Positions 26,123 to 49,004 of a stretch of 64,000 bases of DNA are shown piece by piece (position 1 is the first letter of the stretch; the number at the start of each line of letters is the position of its first letter). Origin of the DNA: Actinomyces sp. (GTDB taxonomy: Bacteria > Actinomycetota > Actinomycetes > Actinomycetales > Actinomycetaceae). The DNA lies in contig NZ_JAUMUL010000001.1 in the NCBI RefSeq assembly GCF_030530635.1, positions 72,548 through 136,547 on the forward strand. Reading direction: 5' to 3'. The position numbers and the translations under genes were made by a program. The notes below the pieces were generated by a model, which saw nothing but the letters and a program-made list of their open reading frames with translations, was not told the origin of the DNA and did not search any database.

Positions 26123-26364
26123 CGGGGCGGAGCGTGTCTGGTTCGGCTTTAAGGCTGAGCGTGGTGGCGGTTAAACCTGACGCGCCGAGGTCTTGGCCCG
26201 CCAGCGGGGTCTGCGTGCCGTAGGTGGAGCGGCTGGCTGAGGCTTCGGCCTCTGAGGTCGTGGGGGAGGTGTTGCCTCTAAGGCGGTGGGGGTGTGAGGC
26301 GAATCATCGGAAATGATTCCCACGCCGCTTCCTCCTTACATAAGGCAACCCTTACATTTGCGCT

Positions 26365-27864
26365 ATGAGACGTCCCGTCGCCATCATCCTCACCTCCGCC
26401 GGACTTGCCGCAGGTGCCGCGATCGCCCTGACCGCTCGACCGAGGCGCCTGCATGTGCCCCCGGTTCCTCTGGGCGATAGGCGTCACCGTCCGCCCCGTG
26501 TGCTCATTGCCGGCGGCGGTTACGTCGGCTTCATCGCAGCTCGGGAGCTGCGTAAACGGCTGAATACCGATGAGGTGGAGATCGCCGTCGTCGATCCGCG
26601 CCCGTACATGACCTACCAACCCTTCTTGCCTGAGGTCGCCGCCGGTTCCATCCAGCCGCGGCATGTGGTCGCCTCCCACCGTCGCGGCCTGGACGGCATC
26701 ACCATCCTGACCGGTTCAGTCACAGACATCGACCACGCACACCGCAGCGTCACCGTCACGCCCCCCATACCCGAGTCCACCAGAATCACCCCCGAGCCCT
26801 ATCCACTGACCTATGACCACCTAGTGCTCGCCCTGGGTGCCGAGGCACGTACCCTGCCCATTCCCGGTCTGGCCGAGCAGGCCCTGGGCTTCAAGCAGGT
26901 GGAGGAGGCGCTCGCTCTGCGCAACCGAGTGCTCTCCCGCATCGAAGAGGCCGCCTCCACCTGGGATCACGACCGGCGTCGGCGCCTGCTCACGTTCGTA
27001 TTCGTGGGCGGCGGTTTCGCCGGCGTGGAGGCGATCGCCGAGTTGGAGGACATGGCCCGCGCCGCTGTGGCCAAGATCCCAAGCATCGAACAGAGCGATG
27101 TGCACTTCGTGCTGGTAGAAGGCACCCGCCGCATCCTGCCCGAACTCACCGAGGAGCTGTCCGGCTACGGCCTGCAGCAACTGCGGGAGCGCGACATCGA
27201 CGTGCGGCTATCCACCTTCTTGAACTCCTGCGTCGACGGACACGTGGTCCTGTCCGACGGCACCGAGTTCGACGCCGACACCATTGTGTGGACCGCAGGG
27301 GTAAAGGCGGCCCCGGTGCTGGCCGACTCGGACCTGCCCATTGAGGGGCGCGGCCGCGTCACCGCCCTGCCCACATTGCAGGTGGCCCGTGAGGGCGTGG
27401 TCGTGGATGGTGCCTGGGCCGCAGGCGACTGTGCGGCCGTGCCCGACCTGGCCGGCGACGATCCGGAGGCCACCTGTGCACCCACCGCTCAGCACGCGGT
27501 CCGTCAGGCCAAGGTCTTGGCCGACAACCTGGTGAAGACTCTGACGGCCGATGCCGACGGGCAGCCGCAGCTGTCCGTTTACCGGCACGAGAACCTCGGC
27601 ACCGTCGCCTCTCTCGGCATCGGCAAGGGGGTGGCCCGCATCATGGGGCACAACCTGCGTGGCATTCCGGCCTGGACCGCTCACCGCGGCTATCACGTCT
27701 ATGCCATGCCCACTCTCAACCGGAAGGTGCGGATCATGATGGACTGGTTCGCGGCCGTCGTCTTCCGCCGCGACTTGGCCAGCTTCGGATCGGTGGCCGC
27801 ACCCGGTGCCGCCTTCGCCGCTGCCGCGGAGCACGACGCCCGCCTGGCCCAGCGGCGCGGCTGA
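26365..27864 (+). CDS. ndh: Type II NADH:quinone oxidoreductase (NDH-2).
   Basis: Two dinucleotide-binding motifs ([17 protein letters not shown] and [15 protein letters not shown]), 499 aa. Confidence 0.85.
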
Positions 27865-29796: not shown

Positions 29797-30744
29797 GTGA
29801 TGTCGACATTCGTCGTTTGGGTGCTCGTGGCCGCCGTCGTATTCCAGCTGCCCGCCGCGAGCGCACTCCGGGACGGCTCCGGCCGGGATCAACACACCGA
29901 GGAGTACCTCGCCGGACAGGGGCTCGTGCTGCCGCCCGACCTGCGGCAGCAGCTGCTCTCGCGCCTGCATCTGCGGTCGCATACCGCCGTCGCCTGGGGC
30001 TGGGGCGGCTGGGCAGCGGGTGTCGCGATGGCCGCGGCGGTCCAGGCGTTCGGCGCCGTCCACCTCGTACCGCTCATCACGCTCCTGGCCACTGCTCTTG
30101 GGCATGCGACCGGCGCGATCATCGGCCTGATGCGGGAGGTGGTCGATCCTCTCCCAGCCGCACCCCGGGTGGCCCGCGCCCGGGCCACGACGTGGAGGGA
30201 TTACTGCGACCGCTGGGACCGTCGTGCGGCGCTCCTTGCGGTCCTGTCCACCGCTTTCGCCTGCATCGCCGCCCTGGGCGTGTGGGTGCTGACCCCGCTG
30301 CGCCCGGACGGCGGGTGGCTGGTGCTCGCGGCAGTCATCGGCGCGGGGGCGTGTGTGGGAGTCGCGGATATGCTCTGCCTGCGGCTCGCAGCGGTCCTGG
30401 CCGATCGTCCCCAGCGGGCACACGGCGACCTCGAGCTCGCCTGGGATGATGCGCTGCGCTCGGGCGCCGTCAGGGGAGTGCTCGACGTGGTTGTTGGCAC
30501 CGGGCTCCTGGCGACCCTGATCATTCTCGGGACCTCTGCCACGTGGCTGATCGCCCCGGAGGTGCGTGCCCGGGGCATGGAGCTGACCGCGCTCCTGGGG
30601 CTGGCCGCCCTTCTTGTGGGGCTCGCCTGCTGGGCGGCGATTCTCGTGCCGTGGCAGCGCGGACGGCGGGTGCGCAACCCCTCCCTGGGGCTGTGGCGCG
30701 ACCATGACCTCTCGGGGCCTGCGCAGGAGGGGCGGGCGTGCTGA
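29797..30744 (+). CDS. Integral membrane protein, hypothetical, with 6 or more TM segments.
   Basis: Hydrophobic segments throughout. The stop overlaps the start of the GntR gene (ATGCTGA). Confidence 0.5.
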   Translation: MMSTFVVWVLVAAVVFQLPAASALRDGSGRDQHTEEYLAGQGLVLPPDLRQQLLSRLHLRSHTAVAWGWGGWAAGVAMAAAVQAFGAVHLVPLITLLATALGHATGAIIGLMREVVDPLPAAPRVARARATTWRDYCDRWDRRAALLAVLSTAFACIAALGVWVLTPLRPDGGWLVLAAVIGAGACVGVADMLCLRLAAVLADRPQRAHGDLELAWDDALRSGAVRGVLDVVVGTGLLATLIILGTSATWLIAPEVRARGMELTALLGLAALLVGLACWAAILVPWQRGRRVRNPSLGLWRDHDLSGPAQEGRAC

Positions 30745-31121
30745 CGGTCGACGCCTCCGGGCGGACACCCCCCTTCGAGCAGATCCGGGACCAGTTGAGG
30801 GCGCAGATCGTCGCCGGGGATCTCGACGTCGGGACGAGGCTGCCCTCGGTACGTCGGCTCGCAGCGGACCTCGGGGTCGCTCCGGGGACGGTTGCCCGGG
30901 CCTACCGAGAACTCGAACAGGCCGGCCTGGTCCGCACCAACCGGCGCACCGGCACGATCGTCGCGCCGCCCGCGGCCGTGGGCGGGCGCAGTGCGGCCGA
31001 ACTCGCGGCGTACTGCGTCGCCGGAATGCGGGGGCTCGCGCTCACCGACGAGCAGATCGTGGCGGCCGTGCAGGACTGCCTGCGGCGTGATCCTCGACCG
31101 CCGACCGATTTCGGTACGTAA
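30738..31121 (+). CDS. GntR-family transcriptional regulator (winged-HTH domain only, 127 aa).
   Basis: LPSVRRLAADLGVAPGTVARAYRELEQAGLV is the canonical GntR HTH. Confidence 0.75.
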   Translation: MLTVDASGRTPPFEQIRDQLRAQIVAGDLDVGTRLPSVRRLAADLGVAPGTVARAYRELEQAGLVRTNRRTGTIVAPPAAVGGRSAAELAAYCVAGMRGLALTDEQIVAAVQDCLRRDPRPPTDFGT

Positions 31122-31210
31122 GTTCAACCGATCTCGGCGGGGGGCGGTGAATAGTTCGGCAGGCAGGGTGCGGAAGGCGTGGGGGACGGCCGCCGAGCCG
31201 CCGGTTGTGG
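31100..31210 (-). pseudogene. Fossil 3' end of an apbE paralog, about 110 bp, a degenerate duplicate of 32011-32120.
   Basis: The minus-strand translation GSAAVPHAFRTLPAELFTAPRRDR aligns in frame with the C-terminus of the intact ApbE (GSAAVSRTWHDLPAELFTSSSPRRDR*), with a 6-nt in-frame deletion and loss of the stop codon. Confidence 0.5.
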
Positions 31211-31280
31211 CCGTCGCGTGGCGCCACCAAGTGAAGACACGGCGCCACCACAGCCCTATATGTCAATAGTCCGGTAACTT

Positions 31281-31856
31281 TCAAGCACTGGCAGTCAGAG
31301 CGGCTGCTCCGAATGACACGCTGAAGTCTTCGCACCAGAGGACCACGGACTTCCAGGTCGTCAGGTCGATATCCGAGGGCAAGTCGTACAGCTGGTTGCC
31401 TTTGTTCCCCTTTAGAGTAGAGACGTCGAGGTGATCGTGATCGGCTGCCGTGTGCCATCCGCCCGTACCCTCGACCACGGGTCCTGCGCTTAACCACACG
31501 TGGACATCTGGTCCGTTAGAAGTCATCAGGTCGGCCAACGCAAGTTGGTGGCTCCCGTCCGGCAACCTGTAGATGGTCGCCGTGCCGCTCGTCTCGTGCT
31601 CGTGGGATACGAAGGAGCCGGTAGCCACGACGGTGGGGGCGGCGGGCTGGGACTGCGTTTGCAGACCCGGGTCGGGAGCGTCCGATTGCGGTGTATCTGG
31701 TGCTGTAGCGGCTGCTGGCGGTAGCGCGTCGTTGACGGTCTTGTCAATGAATAGGAGCCAGGGTTTGAAAATGGCTAGAGCGGCGATGAGCAGGATCGCG
31801 GTTATGCCAGCCAGAGGCAGGATGACACGCTTGCTGTGCGGGAAGGCGAGCGACAC
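31281..31856 (-). CDS. DM13-domain protein (predicted electron-transfer domain), N-terminally membrane-anchored.
   Basis: N-terminal TM segment (ILPLAGITAILLIAALAIF), then TGSFVSHEHETSGTATIYRLPDGSHQLALADLMTSNGPDVHVWLS, which is consistent with the DM13 beta-fold consensus. Confidence 0.55.
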   Translation of the reverse strand: MSLAFPHSKRVILPLAGITAILLIAALAIFKPWLLFIDKTVNDALPPAAATAPDTPQSDAPDPGLQTQSQPAAPTVVATGSFVSHEHETSGTATIYRLPDGSHQLALADLMTSNGPDVHVWLSAGPVVEGTGGWHTAADHDHLDVSTLKGNKGNQLYDLPSDIDLTTWKSVVLWCEDFSVSFGAAALTASA

Positions 31857-32040
31857 AAAGGTCTCCTTTCAATGTTTCCTCAATGATAGATATACCTTAT
31901 GTGGCGAGTGCAGCCTTGTCTAATCGCTGTGAATGAACGCTTGGTGGTTGCGCATCGCTGTTAGCGCCGTCGCGTAAGCCGGATGGACGCCCGGCTACTG
32001 ATCTCGGCAGAGGACTGCCACCGATCTCGGTACGTAACGT

Positions 32041-33090
32041 CTACCGATCTCGGCGGGGGGAGGAGGAGGTGAAGAGTTCCGCGGGCAGGTCGTGCCAGGT
32101 GCGGGAGACGGCGGCGGAGCCGTCGGCGCGCAGCAGGGCGAAGTCATAGTCGAAGCCCGCAGCCGCCAGGGCCGCGGGATCGCTCACGAACAGCGCCGTG
32201 GCCAGTCCGTCCGCCTCGGCGCAGCTGCCCGCAACCGCCCAGGTCGCGATGACGGCGTTCATCCCCTGTATCGGCAGGCCCGTGTGCGCATCCAGGATGT
32301 GGTGCAGTCCCGGTCCCCAGGTGCGGCGGGAGACGCCCGAGGCACACACCGCCCCATTGGCAAGCTCGACGACGCCGACCACCTCGCCTTCACCCCCGCT
32401 CGCCGCCCCGGGCCGTTCCAGGCCGATGCGCACCGGCTCGGAGCAGTGCACCAGCAGGTCGCCGTCGGCGTCAATCAAGTACTCGTCGCGGCCATCCTCC
32501 CGCAGCCAGGCGGCCAGCAGGTCGGCCAGGAAACCCTTCCCGGCGGCGCCGACGTCGATCAGCACCGGCTCGTGCAGCACTAGCCTGTCGCCATCGTGGC
32601 GGGCGGTGTCCGCCCAGGTGGGCCGCCCATGGTCGGCCCCGAGCCTGTGGACGGCGCCGTCGCGCACCACGAAGCTGTATTCGGCGTCATAGCCGAGCGC
32701 TACCAGATCTGCGCCGGCAAGAGGGTCGATGCGTCCGTCGGTGGCGCCGTGCAGCCGGTCGTACAGGTCGAGCAGCGCCGCAGATCCGGGTGGCAGCTCA
32801 AGTACGACCTCGCCGTGCCGTCCCCGGACGATTCGCCCGCCGCCCGGCCCGTGACTGACCCGCACGGCAGCCGCACGGCGCATCAACGACCCGGTGCGGA
32901 AGCGCGACCAGACATCTTCGAAGGCGTCCACGCGCGCCGTGACCTTTTCGCGCAGCGTGTCGGGCAGGGGAGAGCGGGTATAGACCACCCACCGGCAGCC
33001 GGTGGCCTCGAAGTGCCAGGCCTGCGTGAGCCCGCCGGGGGCCTCCAGTGCGCACATATCCCCTCCCTGACCTGGATCAATGCAGACCAT
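32041..33090 (-). CDS. apbE: FAD:protein FMN transferase (ApbE family).
   Basis: ApbE-like segments IDVGAAGKGFLADL and GLHHILDAHTGLP, 349 aa. No signal peptide is visible at this start. Confidence 0.7.
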   Translation of the reverse strand: MVCIDPGQGGDMCALEAPGGLTQAWHFEATGCRWVVYTRSPLPDTLREKVTARVDAFEDVWSRFRTGSLMRRAAAVRVSHGPGGGRIVRGRHGEVVLELPPGSAALLDLYDRLHGATDGRIDPLAGADLVALGYDAEYSFVVRDGAVHRLGADHGRPTWADTARHDGDRLVLHEPVLIDVGAAGKGFLADLLAAWLREDGRDEYLIDADGDLLVHCSEPVRIGLERPGAASGGEGEVVGVVELANGAVCASGVSRRTWGPGLHHILDAHTGLPIQGMNAVIATWAVAGSCAEADGLATALFVSDPAALAAAGFDYDFALLRADGSAAVSRTWHDLPAELFTSSSPRRDR

Positions 33091-33235
33091 CCGATCATGA
33101 CTGCCCGTCAGGTCTCGATGCGACCGGTTTTGACGTGACCAAATAAGTGAGCCTACTCTTTTGGATACAGGTCTGCCTTACCTATTCAGAGGGAGCGCCG
33201 GCCGACGCCTACAGCACGTGAAGGAACCCGTCCGC

Positions 33236-34975
33236 ATGTCCCACGCCTCGGTACAGTCCCGCTCCATGCCCCAGCCGGTGCGCGCCGGCGTCGCGCTCGG
33301 AGCGGTATTACTGCTGCTGATGGGAGTGGTCTCCGGGCCCTGGTCGACGGCCCGGGCGGCCGAGTCCGACACGGACTATGACTCCTGGAGCGCCGTGGCG
33401 CAGGCCATCGCCGCGCAGCTCACCGCCGCGTCCGACTCCTACGCCTCGGGCGACACCTCCGGAGCCGCCGCCGCCTTCCAGCGCGCCTACAACTCCGGGT
33501 ACGTCGCCTCCAACCTTCAGGTCGTCACCACCGACAATCTCGGCGCCGACGTCGTCACCCAGCAACGGCAGGCCTTCAACGACCTGCGTCGGGCCGCCTA
33601 CTCCACAGGCAACGCACAGACCATCAGCTCCGGCATCACGGCGCTATCCGACTCCCTTACCGATACCACCGCCCAACTCGATGATCTGGCCGACCTGGCC
33701 GACCCACGTAGCTACGCCGCCAATCAGGCCGCCACCATCGCCACCGAGCGGGCCGAGATCCAGGCCAACAAGACCCGGGTCAATGAGGGACGCGGCGAGC
33801 GCACCTGGACTCAGGTCGCCGCCGAGATGAACGAGCTGATCGACTCCGGCGTGGACAAGGCCGCCTCCGGAGACCGCGAGGGCGGTGCTGCCGACGTCAA
33901 CAGTGCCTACTACGGCTACTACGAGAAGCTCGGCTTTGAGAAGACTGTCATGGCCGCCATCTCCGGCGACCGTGTCTCCGAGGTGGAGAACCAGTTCAAG
34001 ATCGTGCGCAAAGCCATGATTCGAGGCGACGACAGCAGCACGGTCAGCGCCGAGGCCGAGACCCTCAAGAACTACCTGACCGAGGACGCCGCCGCCCTCG
34101 ACGGCGGCGCGGCCGACAACGTCAGCCCCGTCAAGGCCTTCCTGACCGGCTCCTTCGGGCAGGCCTTCCTGATTCTGCTGCGTGAGGGCCTGGAGGCGAT
34201 CCTGGTGGTCGCCGCCGTCATCGCCTACCTGCTCAAGGCCGGTATGCGGGACCGTGTCAAGTACATCTACGCTGGGGTCGCCCTGGGATTGGCGGGCTCA
34301 GGGCTGGTGGCGCTGGCCTTCACCTGGCTGTACGACTCGGCCTCCGCCCATCAGGAGGTCCTTGAGGGCATCGTGGCACTGATAGCCATGGTGATGTTGC
34401 TGTTCACGTCCAACTGGATGCTGTCGAAGTCCTCGGTGGCGTCATGGAACCGCTACATCAAGGACAAGACCGAGGCCTCCATCTCCAACGGCGGCTTCTG
34501 GGCGCTGGCCTCGCTGTCATTCCTGGCGGTCTTCCGTGAGGGCGCCGAGACGGTCATGTTCTACGAGGCGCTGTTCACCATGGACCCCGGTGGCTCGGCC
34601 GGCATATGGCAGGGCTTCGCCGCCGGTGCGGTCGTGCTCGTGGTCATCTTCCTGCTCATCCGCTTCACCAGCGTGAGGATTCCGCTGCGGCCCTTCTTCG
34701 CCATCACGAGTTTCCTCATGGCCGTCCTCGTCGTGATTTTCGCCGGCGGCGGCGCCCACGCCCTCATTGAGGGCGACATCATCCCGGCGACTTACGTCCA
34801 GGGATGGCCCACGTACGACTACCTGGGCCTGTACCCCTACCGGGAGACTCTCCTGTTCCAGGCCTTCATGGCCGTGGTCGTCATCGTCCTGTCCATCGCC
34901 TCCGTTGTGCGCCACCGCCGTGCGGACGCCGTCCGGGCGGCCATGGATGCGGACGCCGAGGCCACGGCCCAATAG
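33236..34975 (+). CDS. FTR1-family iron permease with a large N-terminal extracytoplasmic domain (FetM-like).
   Basis: Signal peptide, a roughly 330-aa soluble domain and a C-terminal 7-TM region with REGLEA (RExxE iron-binding motif). RBS GAAGGAA upstream. Confidence 0.75.
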   Translation: MSHASVQSRSMPQPVRAGVALGAVLLLLMGVVSGPWSTARAAESDTDYDSWSAVAQAIAAQLTAASDSYASGDTSGAAAAFQRAYNSGYVASNLQVVTTDNLGADVVTQQRQAFNDLRRAAYSTGNAQTISSGITALSDSLTDTTAQLDDLADLADPRSYAANQAATIATERAEIQANKTRVNEGRGERTWTQVAAEMNELIDSGVDKAASGDREGGAADVNSAYYGYYEKLGFEKTVMAAISGDRVSEVENQFKIVRKAMIRGDDSSTVSAEAETLKNYLTEDAAALDGGAADNVSPVKAFLTGSFGQAFLILLREGLEAILVVAAVIAYLLKAGMRDRVKYIYAGVALGLAGSGLVALAFTWLYDSASAHQEVLEGIVALIAMVMLLFTSNWMLSKSSVASWNRYIKDKTEASISNGGFWALASLSFLAVFREGAETVMFYEALFTMDPGGSAGIWQGFAAGAVVLVVIFLLIRFTSVRIPLRPFFAITSFLMAVLVVIFAGGGAHALIEGDIIPATYVQGWPTYDYLGLYPYRETLLFQAFMAVVVIVLSIASVVRHRRADAVRAAMDADAEATAQ

Positions 34976-35026
34976 TCCTGGGCGCACCGAATAATCAGCA
35001 CCAACAACCAACGAAGGAAACACCCC

Positions 35027-35656
35027 ATGCGATCCCTCAAGCTCATCAGCGCCACGGGCGCACTCGTCCTGGCCGGGACCCTCGGCCTGGTCGCCTGCTC
35101 TTCCAATAACGCCGACGACGCCTCGTCCGGCGCAGCCACGCAGGCCGCTGCGGACTCCGGTAACGAGGCCGGATTCGAGGAGTTCAGTGTCAACGAATCC
35201 CAGGAGGATCAGGAGGCCGAGGGGCAGATCAGCGTCAACTTGGTCTACTTCCAGCCGGTCGACATGGAGCCCGCAGGGGCCGCCGGCTTGGCGGCTTCGA
35301 ACGCCAGCTTCCACATGGAGGCCGACATCAGCGCCTTGGCCGACAACACCCTCGGTTACGGTGCCGGTGACTTCGTGCCCGGGCTGACCGTGGACTATTC
35401 CATTGCCCGCGCGGACGGATCCGGCGAGCCGGTGGAGGGCACCTTCATGCAGATGAACGCCTCCGACGGCCCCCACTACGGGGCCAACATCGCTCTGAAT
35501 GAGGCCGGCCAGTACAAGGTCACCATCACCATCCACAGCCCGGAGGAGAACGGCTGGGTGCTGCACACCGACCCCGAGACCGGTGTTGAGGGTCGCTTCT
35601 GGAACGAGCCCATCGAACTCACCTGGGACTGGGACTACACCCCCATGGAGTGGTGA
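35027..35656 (+). CDS. P19/FetP-family periplasmic iron-transport lipoprotein.
   Basis: Lipobox (LGLVACSS), 209 aa, His/Met/Glu-rich beta protein. Its position immediately after the FTR1 permease is the conserved FetMP/cFtr1-P19 arrangement. Confidence 0.65.
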   Translation: MRSLKLISATGALVLAGTLGLVACSSNNADDASSGAATQAAADSGNEAGFEEFSVNESQEDQEAEGQISVNLVYFQPVDMEPAGAAGLAASNASFHMEADISALADNTLGYGAGDFVPGLTVDYSIARADGSGEPVEGTFMQMNASDGPHYGANIALNEAGQYKVTITIHSPEENGWVLHTDPETGVEGRFWNEPIELTWDWDYTPMEW

Positions 35657-35833
35657 GCCGCCGGTGCCGCCGCGCGCCCCGGTAGGGGGAGAGGCCGGCG
35701 TCGCCACCGGTTGTCGCCGTATCCCCGACTTCCGCCACTTGGCGGCTCGGCCGGGGATACGGCGACACCGATAGTGTAGGAACAGGAATCATCGCCCCGG
35801 TCACGGGGAGTCACCGACAGGAGCGCACACGGA

Positions 35834-37105
35834 ATGCTGGAACGCTTCGTATCCGTGGTCGGCGGGGCCACCCTGCCCTTTCTGCTGTACGCCGCCCTGA
35901 CCGTGCTACTGGCGCCGCCCGTCGTCGAGGGGTGGTCACGCTCAAGCCGCTGGCGATTGGCCTGCGCACTTCTCGGCACCGGGGCCGCGCTGGTCTTCGC
36001 CGGCCTGCGGGCATTTGCAGTCATCGACCGGCGCACCGTGGTGAATATCCCCACGCTCATCGCGTGCGTGGCCGTCGACGCCGCGCTGATCATCGTGCTC
36101 CTCCTGCACTCGCGCCGTCGCACGTGGGGGGTGGACGGTTCACTCGGCTCGGTGGCGCAGGTGGTTGCCTGCCTGGCGATTGCCTTGGCATTCTTCCGCG
36201 CCGTCCCGGAGATCGTGCTGCAGCTCACGGCCTTCATCGAGCCGGGCGAGGAGATCGTGTCCTCCGAGATGCTGCTGCGCCTACTGGGTTTCATCGGTGG
36301 GTGGGCGGCAGTGGCCCTACTCGCCTTCATCTACTGCCGCACCGCCCGGCGTACTCCGGTGCGGCCCACTCGCCTGACCCTCCTGGCCTTCATCATCGCC
36401 TTCGCTGCGATGCACCTGATACAGCTGGCCCGAGTACTGCAGTCGGCGCACCTGATTCGCCTGGGTGGGACGGCCTTCCGGATCATGACCTGGGCCACCA
36501 ACAACGCCGGCGGTGTCATCCTGCTGATGGCCGCCGCGGTGTGGCTGGTGCCCATGGCAATCACCCTGGTGAGGGTGCTCGGGCCCACTCCGGGGCAGGC
36601 CAATCCGGCGCGCACCCGAGCCCTGCGTGCCGAGCGTCGTCGCTCCCGCCGGTGGGTGCTCGCCTCGGGTCTCGGCTTCGCGGCGTTGGTGACCACTCGC
36701 ACCGTGGCGGTGGCGAAGGTCAATGAGGTCCCCACCCTTTCCGATCCGGAGCCCTATGAGTTGACCGCCGATGCCGCCGTGGTATCCGCGAGCACTCTGG
36801 CCGACGGACACCTGCACCGTTTCGCCTACACGGCCGCCGCCGGCACCGAAATCCGCTTCATCATGATCCTGAAGAACGGCGGCGCCTACGGGGTGGGTCT
36901 GGACGCCTGCGAGTCCTGCGGGCCGGCCGGCTACTTCGAGGCCGACGGCAAGATCATCTGCAAGCGCTGCGACGTCGCCATCAATCCGGCCACCATCGGA
37001 TTCAAGGGTGGCTGTAATCCGATCCCCATTGATTTCACGGTTGCCGACGGCGCCGTCACCGTGCCGCTGTCCACCTTGGAGGAGCGCGCGGAGGTGTTTG
37101 CCTGA
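35834..37105 (+). CDS. Polytopic membrane protein with a C-terminal Cys-rich domain (CESCGPAGYF...CKRCDV); FetA/Cj1660-like, DUF2318-type.
   Basis: N-terminal TM region, then a soluble domain with CxxC...CxxC. It occupies the position equivalent to fetA/cj1660 downstream of P19. Confidence 0.5.
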   Translation: MLERFVSVVGGATLPFLLYAALTVLLAPPVVEGWSRSSRWRLACALLGTGAALVFAGLRAFAVIDRRTVVNIPTLIACVAVDAALIIVLLLHSRRRTWGVDGSLGSVAQVVACLAIALAFFRAVPEIVLQLTAFIEPGEEIVSSEMLLRLLGFIGGWAAVALLAFIYCRTARRTPVRPTRLTLLAFIIAFAAMHLIQLARVLQSAHLIRLGGTAFRIMTWATNNAGGVILLMAAAVWLVPMAITLVRVLGPTPGQANPARTRALRAERRRSRRWVLASGLGFAALVTTRTVAVAKVNEVPTLSDPEPYELTADAAVVSASTLADGHLHRFAYTAAAGTEIRFIMILKNGGAYGVGLDACESCGPAGYFEADGKIICKRCDVAINPATIGFKGGCNPIPIDFTVADGAVTVPLSTLEERAEVFA

Positions 37106-37106
37106 G

Positions 37107-38396
37107 ATGTTCTTCGTCCACCTGCTGCACCGCTCCTTCACGCGCCAGTTGTGGCGGCGGTCTCTGATCGCCCTGACCGTGGCGCTATGCGCGTCGATAT
37201 CTGTGGCTATGCTCGGCGTGGTGCTCGACGTGGGCGATAAGCTGAATGCCGAGCTGACCGCCTACGGCTCCAATATCGTGGTCCGCCCCAAGGCCGACGC
37301 CGTGGTGTCCGGACTGTACGAGACCGAGGAGGACGCCGAGGCGACCGCCTTCATCGATGAGGACGAGGTGCCCGGTATCAAGACGATCTTCTGGGCCTAC
37401 AACATCGTGGACTTCGCCGCCAGGCTCACCGGTCGCGTCGACGTGTCCTCCGATGGCGGCCGCGCCCCCGACCTGGCGGTCACCGGCACCTGGTTCGACA
37501 AGGAGCTGGATCTGTCCACGGGGCAGACCACTACCGCCGGGGTGACCACGTTGCGCTCGTGGTGGACGTTGGAGGGGAGCTGGCCCGACGACGAGGCCGA
37601 CGAGGCGGTCGTCGGCGCCACGCTGGCGGGGCGTCTGGGTGTCACCGCCGGCGACACCCTCACCTTGTCGACCGGAACCGGTGAACGGAGCCTTACCGTC
37701 ACCGGTGTGTACACCTCCGGCGATGATGATGACGGCTCCCTGTACGCCCCGCTGGCAGTCGTCCAGGAGCTCACCGGCCACGTCGGCCAGGTCGATCAGG
37801 TCGAGGTCAAGGCCCTGACCACCCCGGAGAATGACCTGTCGCGCAAGGCCGCCCGTAACCCGAATGTGTTGTCCGCCGCCGAGTGGGAGACCTGGTACTG
37901 CACCGCATACGCTTCCTCCATCACGTACCAGATCGAGGAGGTCATGCCCGGTGCGGTCGCCAAGCAGGTGCGTCAGGTCGCCGCCGTCGAGGGCAAGGTG
38001 CTGGAGAAGACCCAGGCGCTGATGATCCTCATGACCGCTCTCAGTCTGGTGGCCGCGGTCTTGGCGGTCGCCTCCCTGACCAGGGCCTCACTGGTGGAGC
38101 GCACGAGCGAGTTCGCTCTGCTCAAGGCCGTGGGCGCCTCCTCCGCGTCGCTCAACCGACTGATACTGGCCGAGACCGGCGTCATCGGGGTGGTGGGTAC
38201 GGCGGTCGGGGCCTTGGCCGGCTCCGGTATCGCCCAGCTGATCGGGCAGGTGGTATTCGGTTCGGCGATCACCATGCGTCCCATGGTGTATGTGCTGGTG
38301 GCGGTGCTGGTGGCGCTGGTGCTACTGAGCGCCACCGCCTCCTCAATGCGCGCCATCTTGCGGATTCAGCCCGCGACCGCCCTGCACAGGCGGTGA
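37107..38396 (+). CDS. ABC transporter permease, FtsX/MacB-type (FetB-like).
   Basis: N-terminal TM segment, a large extracytoplasmic domain and a C-terminal FtsX 3-TM bundle (LLKAVGASSASLNRLILAE). Confidence 0.7.
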   Translation: MFFVHLLHRSFTRQLWRRSLIALTVALCASISVAMLGVVLDVGDKLNAELTAYGSNIVVRPKADAVVSGLYETEEDAEATAFIDEDEVPGIKTIFWAYNIVDFAARLTGRVDVSSDGGRAPDLAVTGTWFDKELDLSTGQTTTAGVTTLRSWWTLEGSWPDDEADEAVVGATLAGRLGVTAGDTLTLSTGTGERSLTVTGVYTSGDDDDGSLYAPLAVVQELTGHVGQVDQVEVKALTTPENDLSRKAARNPNVLSAAEWETWYCTAYASSITYQIEEVMPGAVAKQVRQVAAVEGKVLEKTQALMILMTALSLVAAVLAVASLTRASLVERTSEFALLKAVGASSASLNRLILAETGVIGVVGTAVGALAGSGIAQLIGQVVFGSAITMRPMVYVLVAVLVALVLLSATASSMRAILRIQPATALHRR

Positions 38397-38402
38397 TCGG
38401 CG

Positions 38403-39758
38403 ATGACTGACCGCTCCCGCGCGAAGCATCCCATGACCAACCGGGGCATGTTCGCCACCATGCTCATCGGCGCCCTGCTCCGACGCCGCTCGCGGGCTCT
38501 TGCCGCGATCGGATCCTCCGTGGTGGGTGCGGCCACCCTGTTCTGCTTGGCGGCCATCTGCCTGGCGGTACCCGCCCAGATGAGCGCGGAGATGCGCCAG
38601 TACGGCGCCAATCTCATAGTGATGCCCGTCGATGCGGGTGCGGGTTCAGTCGCCGGCGGCTCCGCGTCGGTGGACGCCCTCACCGGCTCGGCCCCTGCGG
38701 AGTCCGATGCCGCCGGGACGCGGACCTCACGCATCACCGATGCCGACCTGGGCGTCGTGGACACCGCCGTGGCCGCCGCCACCGGCACCACCGCCGATCG
38801 ACTGGCCACCGCCGCCTACCGCTATGAGACCATTCGCATCAACCGCTCCCCGTATCTGCTGGCCGGAATCGACGTCGACGCCGTGCGCGCCCTGAACGGG
38901 CACTGGGAAATCGAGGGCGACTGGCCCCGTGAGGGGCAGGTACTTGTGGGCATGAACGTGGCCGAGGCCGCCGGCCTGGGGGTGGGCTCAACCGTTAACG
39001 CCGAGTACCTCTCCAGTGACAACCTCGCTCCGGTCGGTGACTTGGACGACGCCGCGGCTGCTGGCACGGCGGTCACCGCCGACCCGGCCAAGGAGGATGA
39101 GGAGGCGGCGGGGCGGGCCCAGTGGCGGGTGTCCGGCCTGGTCGACACCGGCGGCGAGGAGGATGACATCGTCTATGTTCCCAAAGCCGCGATTGAGTCG
39201 CTGACCGGGACCTTAGACGCCGGCTACGACGTGGTGGAGTTCTCCGTGGATACTGCGGTGGCCGGTACGGGCGAGGTCGCCGCGGCCGTCGCCGAGTCCG
39301 AGGCCTCCGAGCGCGTCGTCGCGCGGCCCGTCTCCAAGATCTCCAGCGGCGACACTCGCATCATTACCATGCTCAACACGCTGTTCTGGGTAGTGGCGGT
39401 GGTGGTGCTCGGTCTGACCCTCGTGGGCGTGTCCACCACCATGACCGTGGTCGTCGCCGAGCGGCGTAAAGAGATCGGTCTGCGTAAGGCGCTGGGCGCC
39501 TCCAGCCGGTCCATTGCCGCCGAGTTCTTCGCGGAGGCCGCGCTGCTGGGGCTTATCGGCGGACTGATCGGCACCGCCATCGGTTACGGGCTGGCCGTCG
39601 GTGTCGGCCTGGGCGTATTCGACCGGCCCATAGCCTTCAGCTGGTGGTTGGCTACGGCCTCCGTCGCACTCACGACGCTGGTGGCCGTCATAGCCTCATA
39701 CTCGCCGGTGCGCCGCGCCTCGCGCATCGACCCCGCGCTGGTACTCAGGGAGGAATGA
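38403..39758 (+). CDS. ABC transporter permease, FtsX/MacB-type (FetC-like).
   Basis: Same architecture as the previous permease; GLRKALGASSRSIAAEFFAEA is the FtsX motif. Confidence 0.7.
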   Translation: MTDRSRAKHPMTNRGMFATMLIGALLRRRSRALAAIGSSVVGAATLFCLAAICLAVPAQMSAEMRQYGANLIVMPVDAGAGSVAGGSASVDALTGSAPAESDAAGTRTSRITDADLGVVDTAVAAATGTTADRLATAAYRYETIRINRSPYLLAGIDVDAVRALNGHWEIEGDWPREGQVLVGMNVAEAAGLGVGSTVNAEYLSSDNLAPVGDLDDAAAAGTAVTADPAKEDEEAAGRAQWRVSGLVDTGGEEDDIVYVPKAAIESLTGTLDAGYDVVEFSVDTAVAGTGEVAAAVAESEASERVVARPVSKISSGDTRIITMLNTLFWVVAVVVLGLTLVGVSTTMTVVVAERRKEIGLRKALGASSRSIAAEFFAEAALLGLIGGLIGTAIGYGLAVGVGLGVFDRPIAFSWWLATASVALTTLVAVIASYSPVRRASRIDPALVLREE

Positions 39759-39759
39759 A

Positions 39760-40530
39760 ATGACCGACACGATCGCCGAGCCGCGGACCGGTTCCCCTGC
39801 CGACGTCGACGACGTACTACTCGAACTGCGGCACGTGTCCAAGATCTACGGCGACCTCCACGCCGTCGACGATCTCAGCCTGACGGTGCCGCGTGGGCAG
39901 TGGCTGTCCGTGGTCGGCTCCTCCGGCTCTGGCAAGACCACCTTGATGAACATCATTGGCTGCATGGACACCCCCACCCGCGGTTCGGTGCTCCTGGGCG
40001 GGCGCGAACTGGGTCGGCTCAACGCCGCCCAGCTGACCGACATCCGCAAGCATGTGATCGGCCTGGTCTTTCAACAGTTTCACCTCATTGCGCACCTGAG
40101 CGCCATTGAGAACGTGATGGTCGCCCAGTACTACCACTCCATGACCGACCGGGAGGAGGCGCTGGCGGCCCTGGACAACGTCGGCCTGGCCGACCGCGCC
40201 CACCACCTGCCTTCGCAGCTGTCCGGTGGTGAGCAGCAGCGTGTGTGCATTGCTCGGGCACTGATCAACCATCCTCAACTGGTGCTCGCCGACGAGCCTA
40301 CCGGCAACCTGGACGAGGCCAACGAGCAACTGGTCCTGGATATATTCTCCCGCCTGCACGAGGCCGGCACCACCCTGATCGTGGTCACCCACGACGCCCA
40401 CGTGGCCTCCTGCGGGCAACGGCAGATCCTGCTCAACCACGGACGACTGGTAGGGGAGAAGCTCAACACCCCGGGTGTGGCACACCGGGACCGTGACATG
40501 CTCGACTTCGGGCAGGAGGAACCCGCATGA
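39760..40530 (+). CDS. ABC transporter ATP-binding protein (MacB/LolD-like; FetD-like).
   Basis: Walker A GSSGSGKTT, signature LSGGEQQRV and Walker B LVLADEPTGNLD. Confidence 0.85.
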   Translation: MTDTIAEPRTGSPADVDDVLLELRHVSKIYGDLHAVDDLSLTVPRGQWLSVVGSSGSGKTTLMNIIGCMDTPTRGSVLLGGRELGRLNAAQLTDIRKHVIGLVFQQFHLIAHLSAIENVMVAQYYHSMTDREEALAALDNVGLADRAHHLPSQLSGGEQQRVCIARALINHPQLVLADEPTGNLDEANEQLVLDIFSRLHEAGTTLIVVTHDAHVASCGQRQILLNHGRLVGEKLNTPGVAHRDRDMLDFGQEEPA

Positions 40531-41087
40531 ATCGACTTCAGTCCGTTCCACACCCGCACACGCCGCCGACCACTGCGGCCCGCCGGGCACTGGCGGCCGC
40601 CGGAGCGGTGCTGGCTGTCTCCCCACTGGCGGGCTGCGGCGGCGGAGAGGCTGTGCCCGCTCAGGACGACTACGCCGGACGCGCCCAGACCCACAATCCG
40701 ACGGCCCTGGCCACCGCCTCCGTGGAGGCTCCCGTCGGCTCCGCCACGCCCACCGGCGGGCCGTACGCGGATGGGGAGTACACCGCCAGCGAGTCCTACG
40801 GGGTGGTCGACGGGGTCGTGGAGGAGGACTCCATCGACGTCACCGTTAGTCTCAAGGGCGGCTTCATCACCGACGTGTCGGTTACCGGTCATGCCCTGAC
40901 CGGCACCTCCAAGAACTACATCGCGGGATTCGTGGAGGAGATCGGTGACGCGGTGGTCGGCCGCAGCATTGAGGACGCCCACGTGACCGCCCTGGCCGGT
41001 GCCTCTAAGACCTCGGCGGCCTTCAACGAAGCCGTCGACGCCATCGCTGCGCAGGCCGCCTCTACCTCTCCCACCTCCGCGCCCTGA
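40527..41087 (+). CDS. FMN-binding-domain lipoprotein; a predicted ApbE flavinylation substrate.
   Basis: Lipobox (LAGCGG) and an FMN_bind fold (GEYTASESYG...IDVTVSLKGGFITDVSV...). The covalent-FMN motif position reads VTALAGASKTS, a variant of DxxSGAT. Confidence 0.65.
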   Translation: MNRLQSVPHPHTPPTTAARRALAAAGAVLAVSPLAGCGGGEAVPAQDDYAGRAQTHNPTALATASVEAPVGSATPTGGPYADGEYTASESYGVVDGVVEEDSIDVTVSLKGGFITDVSVTGHALTGTSKNYIAGFVEEIGDAVVGRSIEDAHVTALAGASKTSAAFNEAVDAIAAQAASTSPTSAP

Positions 41088-48839: not shown

Positions 48840-49004
48840 AGTGTGTTGTGATGTTCTCGGCGGTAGTTTGGTTAGGGAAACCTGATGTTGATTAATCCTA
48901 CCTGGTGTCTGGTGTCTGATGTCTGACCGTCGGTCACGGCATTATTGCGGTTGGGAGTGATTGTCGTGGGAGCAGATGCCGGTACGATCTGTGGTCCTGA
49001 CGCC

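Follow-up and report, generated by a model that had tools for sequence, protein, structure and literature searches.

How can a bacterium without a periplasm attach a flavin to a surface lipoprotein when the enzyme predicted to do so carries no export signal? This question is raised by a locus in Actinomyces sp. (RefSeq assembly GCF_030530635.1, contig NZ_JAUMUL010000001.1, positions 72,548 to 136,547 of the forward strand), a stretch of 64,000 nucleotides that was analysed as a whole and is called the window here; its GC content is high, at about 0.67. Within it, a seven-gene operon related to the Fet/P19 iron-uptake systems (33236-41087) is preceded divergently by apbE, a gene for a flavin adenine dinucleotide (FAD):protein flavin mononucleotide (FMN) transferase. 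A sequence-only reading of the window had proposed that an extracytoplasmic flavin module, composed of ApbE, an FMN-binding lipoprotein and a DM13 protein, stands in for the thioredoxins that usually close such operons. From the results below, we hold with good confidence that the locus represents, in Actinomyces, the FMN-type Fet/P19 iron-uptake systems, with a divergent apbE and a conserved DtxR/IdeR-like operator; the DM13 protein does not appear to belong to it.

Genes were assigned with Pfam profiles run on the translated genes, the gathering cut-off for FMN_bind being 22 bits. All genes named in the sequence-only reading were found where it had placed them (Table 1), with strong Pfam matches except for the FMN_bind gene, and their domain content bears out the FetMP/FetABCD-type order (cFtr1-P19-Cj1660-1663). 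An FTR1 permease with REXXE motifs is followed directly by P19 and then, in order, by the DUF2318 protein, two FtsX permeases, an ABC ATPase and, as the seventh gene, an extracytoplasmic redox protein. The gene junctions are short or overlapping, and the ABC ATPase and FMN_bind genes share 4 bp. In FetM, the FTR1 domain occupies the C-terminal half (REGLE, 34181-34195, residue 316; REGAE, 34535-34549, residue 434), preceded by about 300 residues comprising a signal peptide and an acidic outside domain of about 277 residues; translation starts at ATG 33236, behind a conserved ribosome-binding site (GAAGGA), and not at TTG 33161. The start of the first permease was placed at 37107.

The assignment of 35027-35656 to the P19 family, which the sequence-only reading had staked its case on, is borne out by structural relatives in the PDB as well (8t7m at 6e-41, FetP 3nrp at 4e-37, Tp34 and C. 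jejuni P19 3lzl, with a range of 1e-27 to 1e-41). The DUF2318 protein has seven hydropathy peaks and, by eye, a weaker eighth segment at approximately 283-300, and its Cys-rich C-terminal domain carries CxxC pairs at 359/362 and 376/379 plus C394; this domain is predicted to lie outside because of an Arg-rich loop (247-282, positive-inside rule). No solved structural relative of this protein was found. The MacB-type permease 1 has four transmembrane segments and a 264-residue acidic outside domain. Hydropathy together with the positive-inside rule predicts that P19 and the FMN lipoprotein face outward, as do the N-terminal domain of FetM, the DUF2318 Cys4 domain and both MacB-type loops. The missing thioredoxin end, also claimed from sequence alone, was likewise upheld: no thioredoxin gene lies 3' of the operon, where two YbjN genes, miaA and dapF come next. 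Both remaining parts of the layout, the FMN_bind lipoprotein as the end of the operon and apbE as its divergent cognate gene upstream, were supported.

Table 1. Positions of the genes and regulatory elements of the apbE-fet locus and of its miaB-proximal flank, given in window coordinates.
Feature	Position	Strand	Match or remark
apbE, FAD:protein FMN transferase without signal peptide	32041-33090	-	Pfam PF02424 1.9e-31
Putative -35 TTGACG	33130-33135		Read from conserved block
Two tandem DtxR/IdeR-like boxes	33143-33161, 33167-33185		apbE-fetM divergent promoter; match TTAGGTTAGGCTAACCTAA at 13/19 and 12/19
Putative -10 TACTCT	33154-33159		Read from conserved block
fetM-like N-terminally extended FTR1 permease	33236-34975	+	Pfam PF03239 5.7e-32; NCBIfam EfeU/Ftr1 8e-37
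P19/FetP-family iron-binding lipoprotein, lipobox LVAC, Cys24	35027-35656	+	Pfam PF10634 4.3e-53
Cj1660/FetA-like polytopic membrane protein, FtrD-like (formerly DUF2318)	35834-37105	+	Pfam PF10080 3e-29
MacB-type ABC permease 1	37107-38396	+	Pfam MacB_PCD + FtsX
FtsX-type ABC permease 2	38403-39758	+	Pfam FtsX 8.4e-21
ABC ATPase	39760-40530	+	Pfam ABC_tran 6.5e-34
FMN_bind-like lipoprotein, lipobox LAGC, Cys37	40527-41087	+	Pfam FMN_bind E=4.4e-4, 21.3 bits
DM13	31281-31856	-	Pfam 1.5e-28
Small GntR/YtrA-like regulator	30738-31121		In miaB-apbE insertion
Seven-transmembrane open reading frame without family match	29797-30744		In miaB-apbE insertion

The arrangement is conserved within the genus. 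Synteny is identical in A. slackii, A. qiguomingii and A. ruminis, running from miaB through apbE and the divergent fetM-to-FMN_bind operon to ybjN, ybjN and miaA, and with 18 metagenomic loci added to these three genomes a divergent orientation of apbE and fetM is seen in 21 Actinomyces-type loci. Among the metagenomic loci, apbE stands beside both FTR1 and P19 in 16 of 18, beside FTR1 alone in one and beside neither in one short contig. The general form of such operons has been described previously. Liu et al. 2018 (mBio, PMC6083913) compared the operon in 33 species and found its seventh gene to be a thioredoxin in Proteobacteria and an FMN-binding protein in Actinobacteria, Firmicutes, Spirochaetes and Synergistetes, suggesting that either protein could deliver reducing power outside the cytoplasm for ferric iron reduction. 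Méheust et al. 2021 (eLife, PMC8238504) reported 260 P19 clusters that include an FMN-binding gene, the majority of them from Gram-positives, and drew the parallel with thioredoxin-like genes. The replacement of thioredoxins by an FMN protein, as read from the window, is thus right at its core but was already in print.

The spacer between apbE and fetM carries the two tandem boxes of Table 1, of which the stronger (AGGTnnGnCTnACCT) lies directly 3' of a conserved block, TTGACG-18 nt-TACTCT. These hexamers were not called by the promoter scanner, and consensus scans for promoters and terminators across 29.5-33.4 kb returned nothing useful. Sites matching the DtxR/IdeR consensus at 13/19 or better number three in the whole 64 kb. 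A. slackii, A. qiguomingii and A. ruminis all retain the stronger box, as do 17 of the 18 metagenomic Actinomyces-type loci; in these metagenomic loci there is usually no other match at or above 13/19. A Fur-box scan did not find a convincing site near the operon. Because of this conserved operator in the divergent spacer, iron-dependent repression is predicted for the fet operon, and the same control probably extends to apbE.

Whether the seventh gene encodes a flavinylated protein depends on its domain and on its acceptor residue. By Pfam alone the product of 40527-41087 would not be placed in FMN_bind, its score of 21.3 bits being marginally under the cut-off, whereas the evidence at family level supports the placement. 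Several homologues do match PF04205, the NCBI name of the product is 'FMN-binding protein', and the profile of the lipoprotein family matches a solved FMN-binding domain (8p2a, E=0.0022), with the SGAT of 8p2a aligned onto the AGAS of the window protein. An AlphaFold 2 (AF2) model shows an alpha/beta domain with a predicted local distance difference test score (pLDDT) of approximately 90 over residues 78-182. Because of the homologue matches, the family alignment, the 8p2a match and this modelled domain, we accept the product as a divergent FMN_bind domain. In the family alignment C37, A157, G158, S160 and T162 are invariant; the lipobox LAGC with the invariant Cys37 places the protein outside the cytosol, and AGAS corresponds to residues 157-160, making Ser160, within TALAGASKTS (codon 41004-41006), the predicted flavinylation site. 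The family comprises 2,214 clusters at 50% identity (E<=1e-10), and the acceptor Ser is retained in 148 of the 150 best representatives with the consensus [AS]G[SA]S. The sequence-only reading took AGAS for a serine acceptor and was mistaken in calling it an oddity: the published flavinylation motif is [S/T]GA[S/T], serine acceptors have been demonstrated experimentally, and given its retention among the best representatives AGAS is the signature of a Ser-acceptor FMN_bind subfamily.

The enzyme has what catalysis should need. The catalytic His lies in HHILD (32290-32304), where V. cholerae ApbE (6nxi) has SHIID in the alignment; the FAD/Mg motifs AGKGF and ADGLATA are present. What it does not have is the N-terminal signal peptide or lipoprotein anchor that is typical of ApbEs with exported substrates, and no transmembrane or hydrophobic segment was found anywhere in the protein. 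The sequence-only reading had noted this absence, and it was confirmed: extending the frame upstream adds 29 hydrophilic residues before it is closed by an in-frame stop 30 codons up, and the NCBI start lies further in, at Met12 (position 33057). A hidden upstream start or a frameshift concealing a signal peptide was considered and rejected on the grounds of this stop and of the 145-bp spacer being conserved non-coding promoter/operator sequence.

Nor does the absence single out the window gene. No signal peptide occurs in any of the 21 Fet-linked ApbEs: ahead of the domain, their maximum 12-residue hydropathy is at most 1.34, compared with 2.1-3.0 where P19, FetM, DM13 and the FMN lipoprotein have their signal peptides. 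A hydrophobic stretch appears in just one of 43 open reading frames from soil (L121, 2.32), which is probably over-extended. The median number of residues preceding the domain is 29 in the Fet-linked set and 16 in the soil set, and in homologues of 287-350 residues (Actinomyces, Streptomyces, Amycolatopsis, Rhodococcus, Frankia and Nonomuraea) a few residues precede the first conserved strand. By these comparisons, the missing signal is a clade-wide trait. As a separate observation, contigs from human-gut metagenomes (L150, L157, L159-L168) hold another apbE group with about 40% identity to that of the window and, in most cases, an FTR1 gene within 4 kb; their apparent start, MDSLTQRMPF..., has no signal peptide, and the 5' part of the maximal open reading frame differs between contigs.

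Throughout the clade, the signal-less apbE is accompanied by a lipoprotein gene. In the Actinomyces loci the divergent apbE stands 7.4 kb upstream of the FMN_bind gene in all cases. In Streptomyces and Rhodococcus the product of the adjoining gene, which lies on the same strand, is a small lipoprotein clearly homologous to the window FMN_bind protein, and among soil metagenomic loci with sequence on both sides such a homologue lies on the same strand within 400 bp of apbE in 38 of 39. The acceptor block in these adjoining lipoproteins is [AGS]-G-[SAN]-S. Within the locus and the window no other candidate acceptor was found, none of the other locus proteins having an xG[AS][ST] or [AST]G[ASN][ST] motif. 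Because of the conserved adjacency, this sole acceptor motif in the locus and the intact catalytic residues, the lipoprotein is taken as the predicted substrate of ApbE. Its own signal has ARRALA before the lipobox; roughly half the Actinomyces homologues have twin arginines, as do 12 of 35 members of the family encoded beside apbE, the remaining signals being mostly of the ordinary lipoprotein type. Twin-arginine translocation (Tat) of an FMN-loaded lipoprotein was for this reason rejected as a general answer. A further protein of interest is encoded in Streptomyces phaeochromogenes (L088, 5258-5947), where a Flavodoxin_4 protein with a twin-arginine lipoprotein signal (MTGTTRRTFLSLAG...AGC) adjoins a signal-less apbE and an FMN_bind lipoprotein; Flavodoxin_4 was demonstrated to be a class of ApbE substrate in 2024.

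Combined, these features suggest the following course of events. Under iron limitation, a DtxR-family repressor would leave the operator and both transcription units would be expressed; ApbE would move FMN from FAD onto Ser160 of the lipoprotein, and the resulting surface-tethered flavoprotein, in place of the proteobacterial thioredoxins, would supply reducing equivalents outside the membrane. The electrons might pass to Fe(III) directly, to the P19 copper site or to the Cys4 domain, after which P19-bound iron would enter through the FTR1 permease. The flavoprotein would be charged by a system encoded elsewhere, since none of the locus genes is recognisable as encoding a membrane electron conduit.

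Several observations weigh against parts of this scheme, the missing conduit among them. The Pfam score of the lipoprotein stays slightly under the cut-off, its Foldseek matches are weak (best E 8e-3; 3o6u and 8p2a) with IscU-like folds scoring similarly, and T-A-L-A-G-A-S, when set against D-x-x-[S/T]-G-A-[S/T], retains G-A-S and lacks the Asp and the first Ser/Thr. These would fit a divergent FMN_bind-like fold that is never covalently flavinylated and has another role, with the target of ApbE elsewhere; we consider this quite improbable, given an invariant G-[AS]-S-x-T core, the near-universal acceptor Ser noted above, the strictness with which the family neighbours apbE across Actinomycetota, the lack of another acceptor and the minor effect on flavinylation of an Asp-to-Ala change in a published model protein. 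A different doubt concerns the direction of electron flow. The other FTR1 systems whose mechanism is characterised (Fet3/Ftr1, EfeUOB, FtrABCD) use iron oxidation and not reduction, and the Pfam name of DUF2318, 'FtrD-like', derives from the proposed electron sink of FtrABCD, so that the flavoprotein could instead be the electron acceptor of a ferroxidase-type mechanism in which Fe2+ is oxidised on its way to FTR1. The potential of flavins is, however, too low for a natural oxidant of Fe2+, and the gene replaced by the lipoprotein encodes reductants of the thioredoxin/TlpA type; for these two reasons we favour, by analogy, a reductive role with electrons passing to Fe(III) or to the P19 copper site. 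Reduction was also favoured in PMC6083913 and PMC8238504, and the ferroxidase alternative appears improbable.

The hardest point concerns the site of flavinylation: ApbE is predicted to be cytoplasmic, while the lipoprotein that it presumably modifies has a mostly Sec-type signal. One way out is that FMN is put onto the lipoprotein precursor inside the cell and the FMN-bearing chain is translocated afterwards. The window gene allows no signal peptide, the clade is tightly tied to lipoprotein substrates, no FAD would be needed outside a cell that has no periplasm, and according to published work the seven-residue motif is recognised even as an unstructured tag and a truncated ApbE flavinylates a truncated substrate in the E. 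coli cytosol. However, with twin arginines in a minority of the family, a phospho-FMN adduct would have to pass SecYEG, which is unprecedented, so that we regard this sequence of events as possible and hold it tentatively. The other way out is that ApbE itself is exported non-classically, for example by a SecA2-type or piggy-back route, and acts outside as in other bacteria. Characterised pairs of ApbE and lipoprotein are all flavinylated outside the cytosol, and leaderless export is known in Actinobacteria. Against this, no export feature was seen in 60-odd clade members, and extracellular FAD would have to be supplied although Pfam finds no flavin exporter encoded in the locus; non-classical export therefore seems somewhat unlikely as well. 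Two published observations count against the cytoplasmic route: in Salmonella a cytosolic ApbE failed to complement (as given in a review), and cytosolic ApbEs are described for cytosolic substrates only in the reviews and papers that could be searched. No paper discussing the signal-less actinobacterial clade was found among them. That this clade, tied to Ser-acceptor FMN_bind lipoproteins, may flavinylate the unfolded precursor in the cytoplasm before export is offered as a doubtful proposal; if true, it would mean that extracytoplasmic flavoproteins can be made without extracellular FAD, with the Actinomyces Fet/P19 operon as one client.

The DM13 protein, which the sequence-only reading had counted as part of the module, was not retained. 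It is a genuine membrane-anchored extracytoplasmic domain, and its gene follows apbE on the same strand at a distance of 184 bp, no terminator being predicted in the gap, which counts against excluding it and makes co-transcription possible in this strain; the invariance of its S-H-E-H and W-C residues and a beta-sandwich model weakly resembling Cu-superoxide dismutase and PmoD would also suit a metal or redox protein. Yet DM13 is missing from all 21 orthologous loci (A. slackii, A. qiguomingii, A. ruminis and the 18 metagenomic ones), and conversely no homologue of ApbE, FMN_bind, FTR1, P19, DUF2318 or FtsX was found by tblastn and hidden Markov model searches within 10 kb of DM13 in 80 Actinomycetota loci (1.49 Mb). 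Neighbour clustering shows varied, housekeeping genes beside DM13 elsewhere (e.g., lysC/asd/mqo, dapD/dapE). A. timonensis encodes a DM13 protein as well as an FMN_bind protein of the Fet type, and no Fet gene lies within 10 kb at its DM13 locus (L013). The GC content at third codon positions is 0.72 in the DM13 gene and 0.85-0.89 in the flanking genes, and a literature search found no paper linking DM13 and ApbE. On account of its lack of co-occurrence with these genes in both sets of loci, its neighbours elsewhere and its lower third-position GC content, we judge DM13 to be a lineage-specific chance neighbour and not a component of the flavin/iron module. A role as a third, electron-transferring part feeding the importer is very improbable, having been largely refuted by this genome comparison. 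The gene sits in a lineage-specific 2.3-kb insertion between miaB and apbE (29797-31856) that is missing from the three related Actinomyces genomes, and it would have arrived there along with the GntR-like regulator and the seven-transmembrane protein.

In their own right, DM13 proteins form a family of membrane-anchored proteins of about 190 residues, well conserved across Actinomycetota, each with a transmembrane anchor and a domain of about 110 residues. The AF2 beta-sandwich, a confident model (pLDDT 83), has as its best but weak PDB neighbours the Cu-only superoxide dismutase SOD5, a Cu,Zn-superoxide dismutase and PmoD, a modelled resemblance that gives a hint of a surface protein binding copper; in the literature, no described function was found for any bacterial DM13.

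Additional sites in the window resemble the operator. The best DtxR/IdeR match (15/19, TTTGGTTAGGGAAACCTGA) lies at 48867-48885, about 28 bp upstream of minus-strand genes running from 48839 to 46213, an operon of lower GC content (0.625) that encodes an ABC ATPase and proteins of 386 and 243 residues without a Pfam or NCBIfam match; this operon may represent a second iron-regulated transporter, of undefined type. A 13/19 match at 26336-26354 is located directly upstream of a gene (26365-27864) for a Pyr_redox_2 flavoprotein of the NADH-dehydrogenase/CoA-disulfide-reductase type, and, if that site is real, an iron-regulated oxidoreductase gene would lie a few kb from the fet locus. Inside the operon, the 177-bp spacer between P19 and DUF2318 contains a window-unique perfect inverted repeat at 35712-35767, with a 16-bp stem (arms 35713-35727 and 35752-35766) and no T-tract. 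The spacer is just 87 bp long in A. qiguomingii and A. ruminis, so the hairpin resembles an insertion; it could serve in attenuation or in stabilisation of the fetM-p19 portion of the transcript.

For iron biology, the locus contributes little more than a further Actinomyces example and the prediction of a DtxR-type operator. What is left as new, by comparative sequence evidence, is that across the clade an ApbE lacking a signal is paired with a lipoprotein substrate, a feature general to Actinomycetota and not specific to the window. The main product is therefore a testable paradox, in that an enzyme modifying a surface lipoprotein looks cytoplasmic across Actinomycetota, and it bears on where covalent flavinylation takes place and where FAD comes from in bacteria without a periplasm, questions of concern to the field of extracytosolic electron transfer. 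The window gene pair, or the compact two-gene versions from soil, would be a convenient system for locating the site of flavinylation. The case of DM13 is also a caution that adjacency in a single genome is poor ground for naming an iron or flavin partner.

Among known systems, the closest are the Gram-positive FMN-type P19/FTR1 clusters of PMC6083913 and PMC8238504, with which the locus shares the six core genes, their order, the FMN-binding seventh gene and its proposed role as an extracytoplasmic reductant. Three features of the window are not described there: the divergent signal-less apbE, the Ser-only [AS]G[SA]S subfamily and the DtxR/IdeR-type operator. In Bifidobacterium-like loci the FMN_bind gene is present and apbE was not found within 10 kb. 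The cFtr1-P19-Cj1660-1665 operon of C. jejuni and FetMP-FetABCDEF of E. coli have the same FTR1 permease with an N-terminal outside domain and REXXE, followed in the same order by P19, DUF2318, two FtsX permeases and the ABC ATPase, whereas these end in TlpA/thioredoxin genes and are Fur-regulated. A tblastn search of plasmids with the DUF2318 protein led to an E. coli fet locus on pEC648_1 (L170, NZ_CP008715.1 94549-106869), which has the same six core genes, a DUF2318 protein with an extra C-terminal YHS domain and a TlpA-type seventh gene, and in which a membrane-anchored NqrC-like FMN_bind gene (PF04205 4.9e-11, canonical DGISGATLTS) and another thioredoxin-like gene lie directly upstream of fetM. 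Since this plasmid carries both, flavin and thiol partners can coexist in one locus and are not strict alternatives.

More distant relatives share parts of the design. FtrABCD of Brucella and Bordetella and EfeUOB likewise join an FTR1-family permease to P19 (FtrA) or another periplasmic iron-binding partner and a redox accessory; the accessory set of the window is instead DUF2318, a MacB-type ABC transporter and a flavoprotein, and no locus gene matches the cupredoxin, polyferredoxin, EfeO or EfeB families in Pfam. Extracellular electron transfer in Listeria monocytogenes (FmnB/PplA) also pairs an ApbE-family enzyme with a surface FMN_bind lipoprotein, which in Listeria passes electrons to extracellular acceptors including ferric iron. 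There, FmnB is itself an exported lipoprotein, FAD arrives by an ECF transporter and electrons travel through Ndh2 and EetA/B, while in the window ApbE has no export signal and neither a conduit nor a flavin exporter lies nearby. In lacking a signal peptide, the window ApbE resembles the cytoplasmic ApbE of Klebsiella pneumoniae and the trypanosomatid ApbE-fumarate reductase; those enzymes serve cytosolic fumarate reductases, whereas the conserved neighbour and only candidate substrate of the window ApbE is a lipoprotein.

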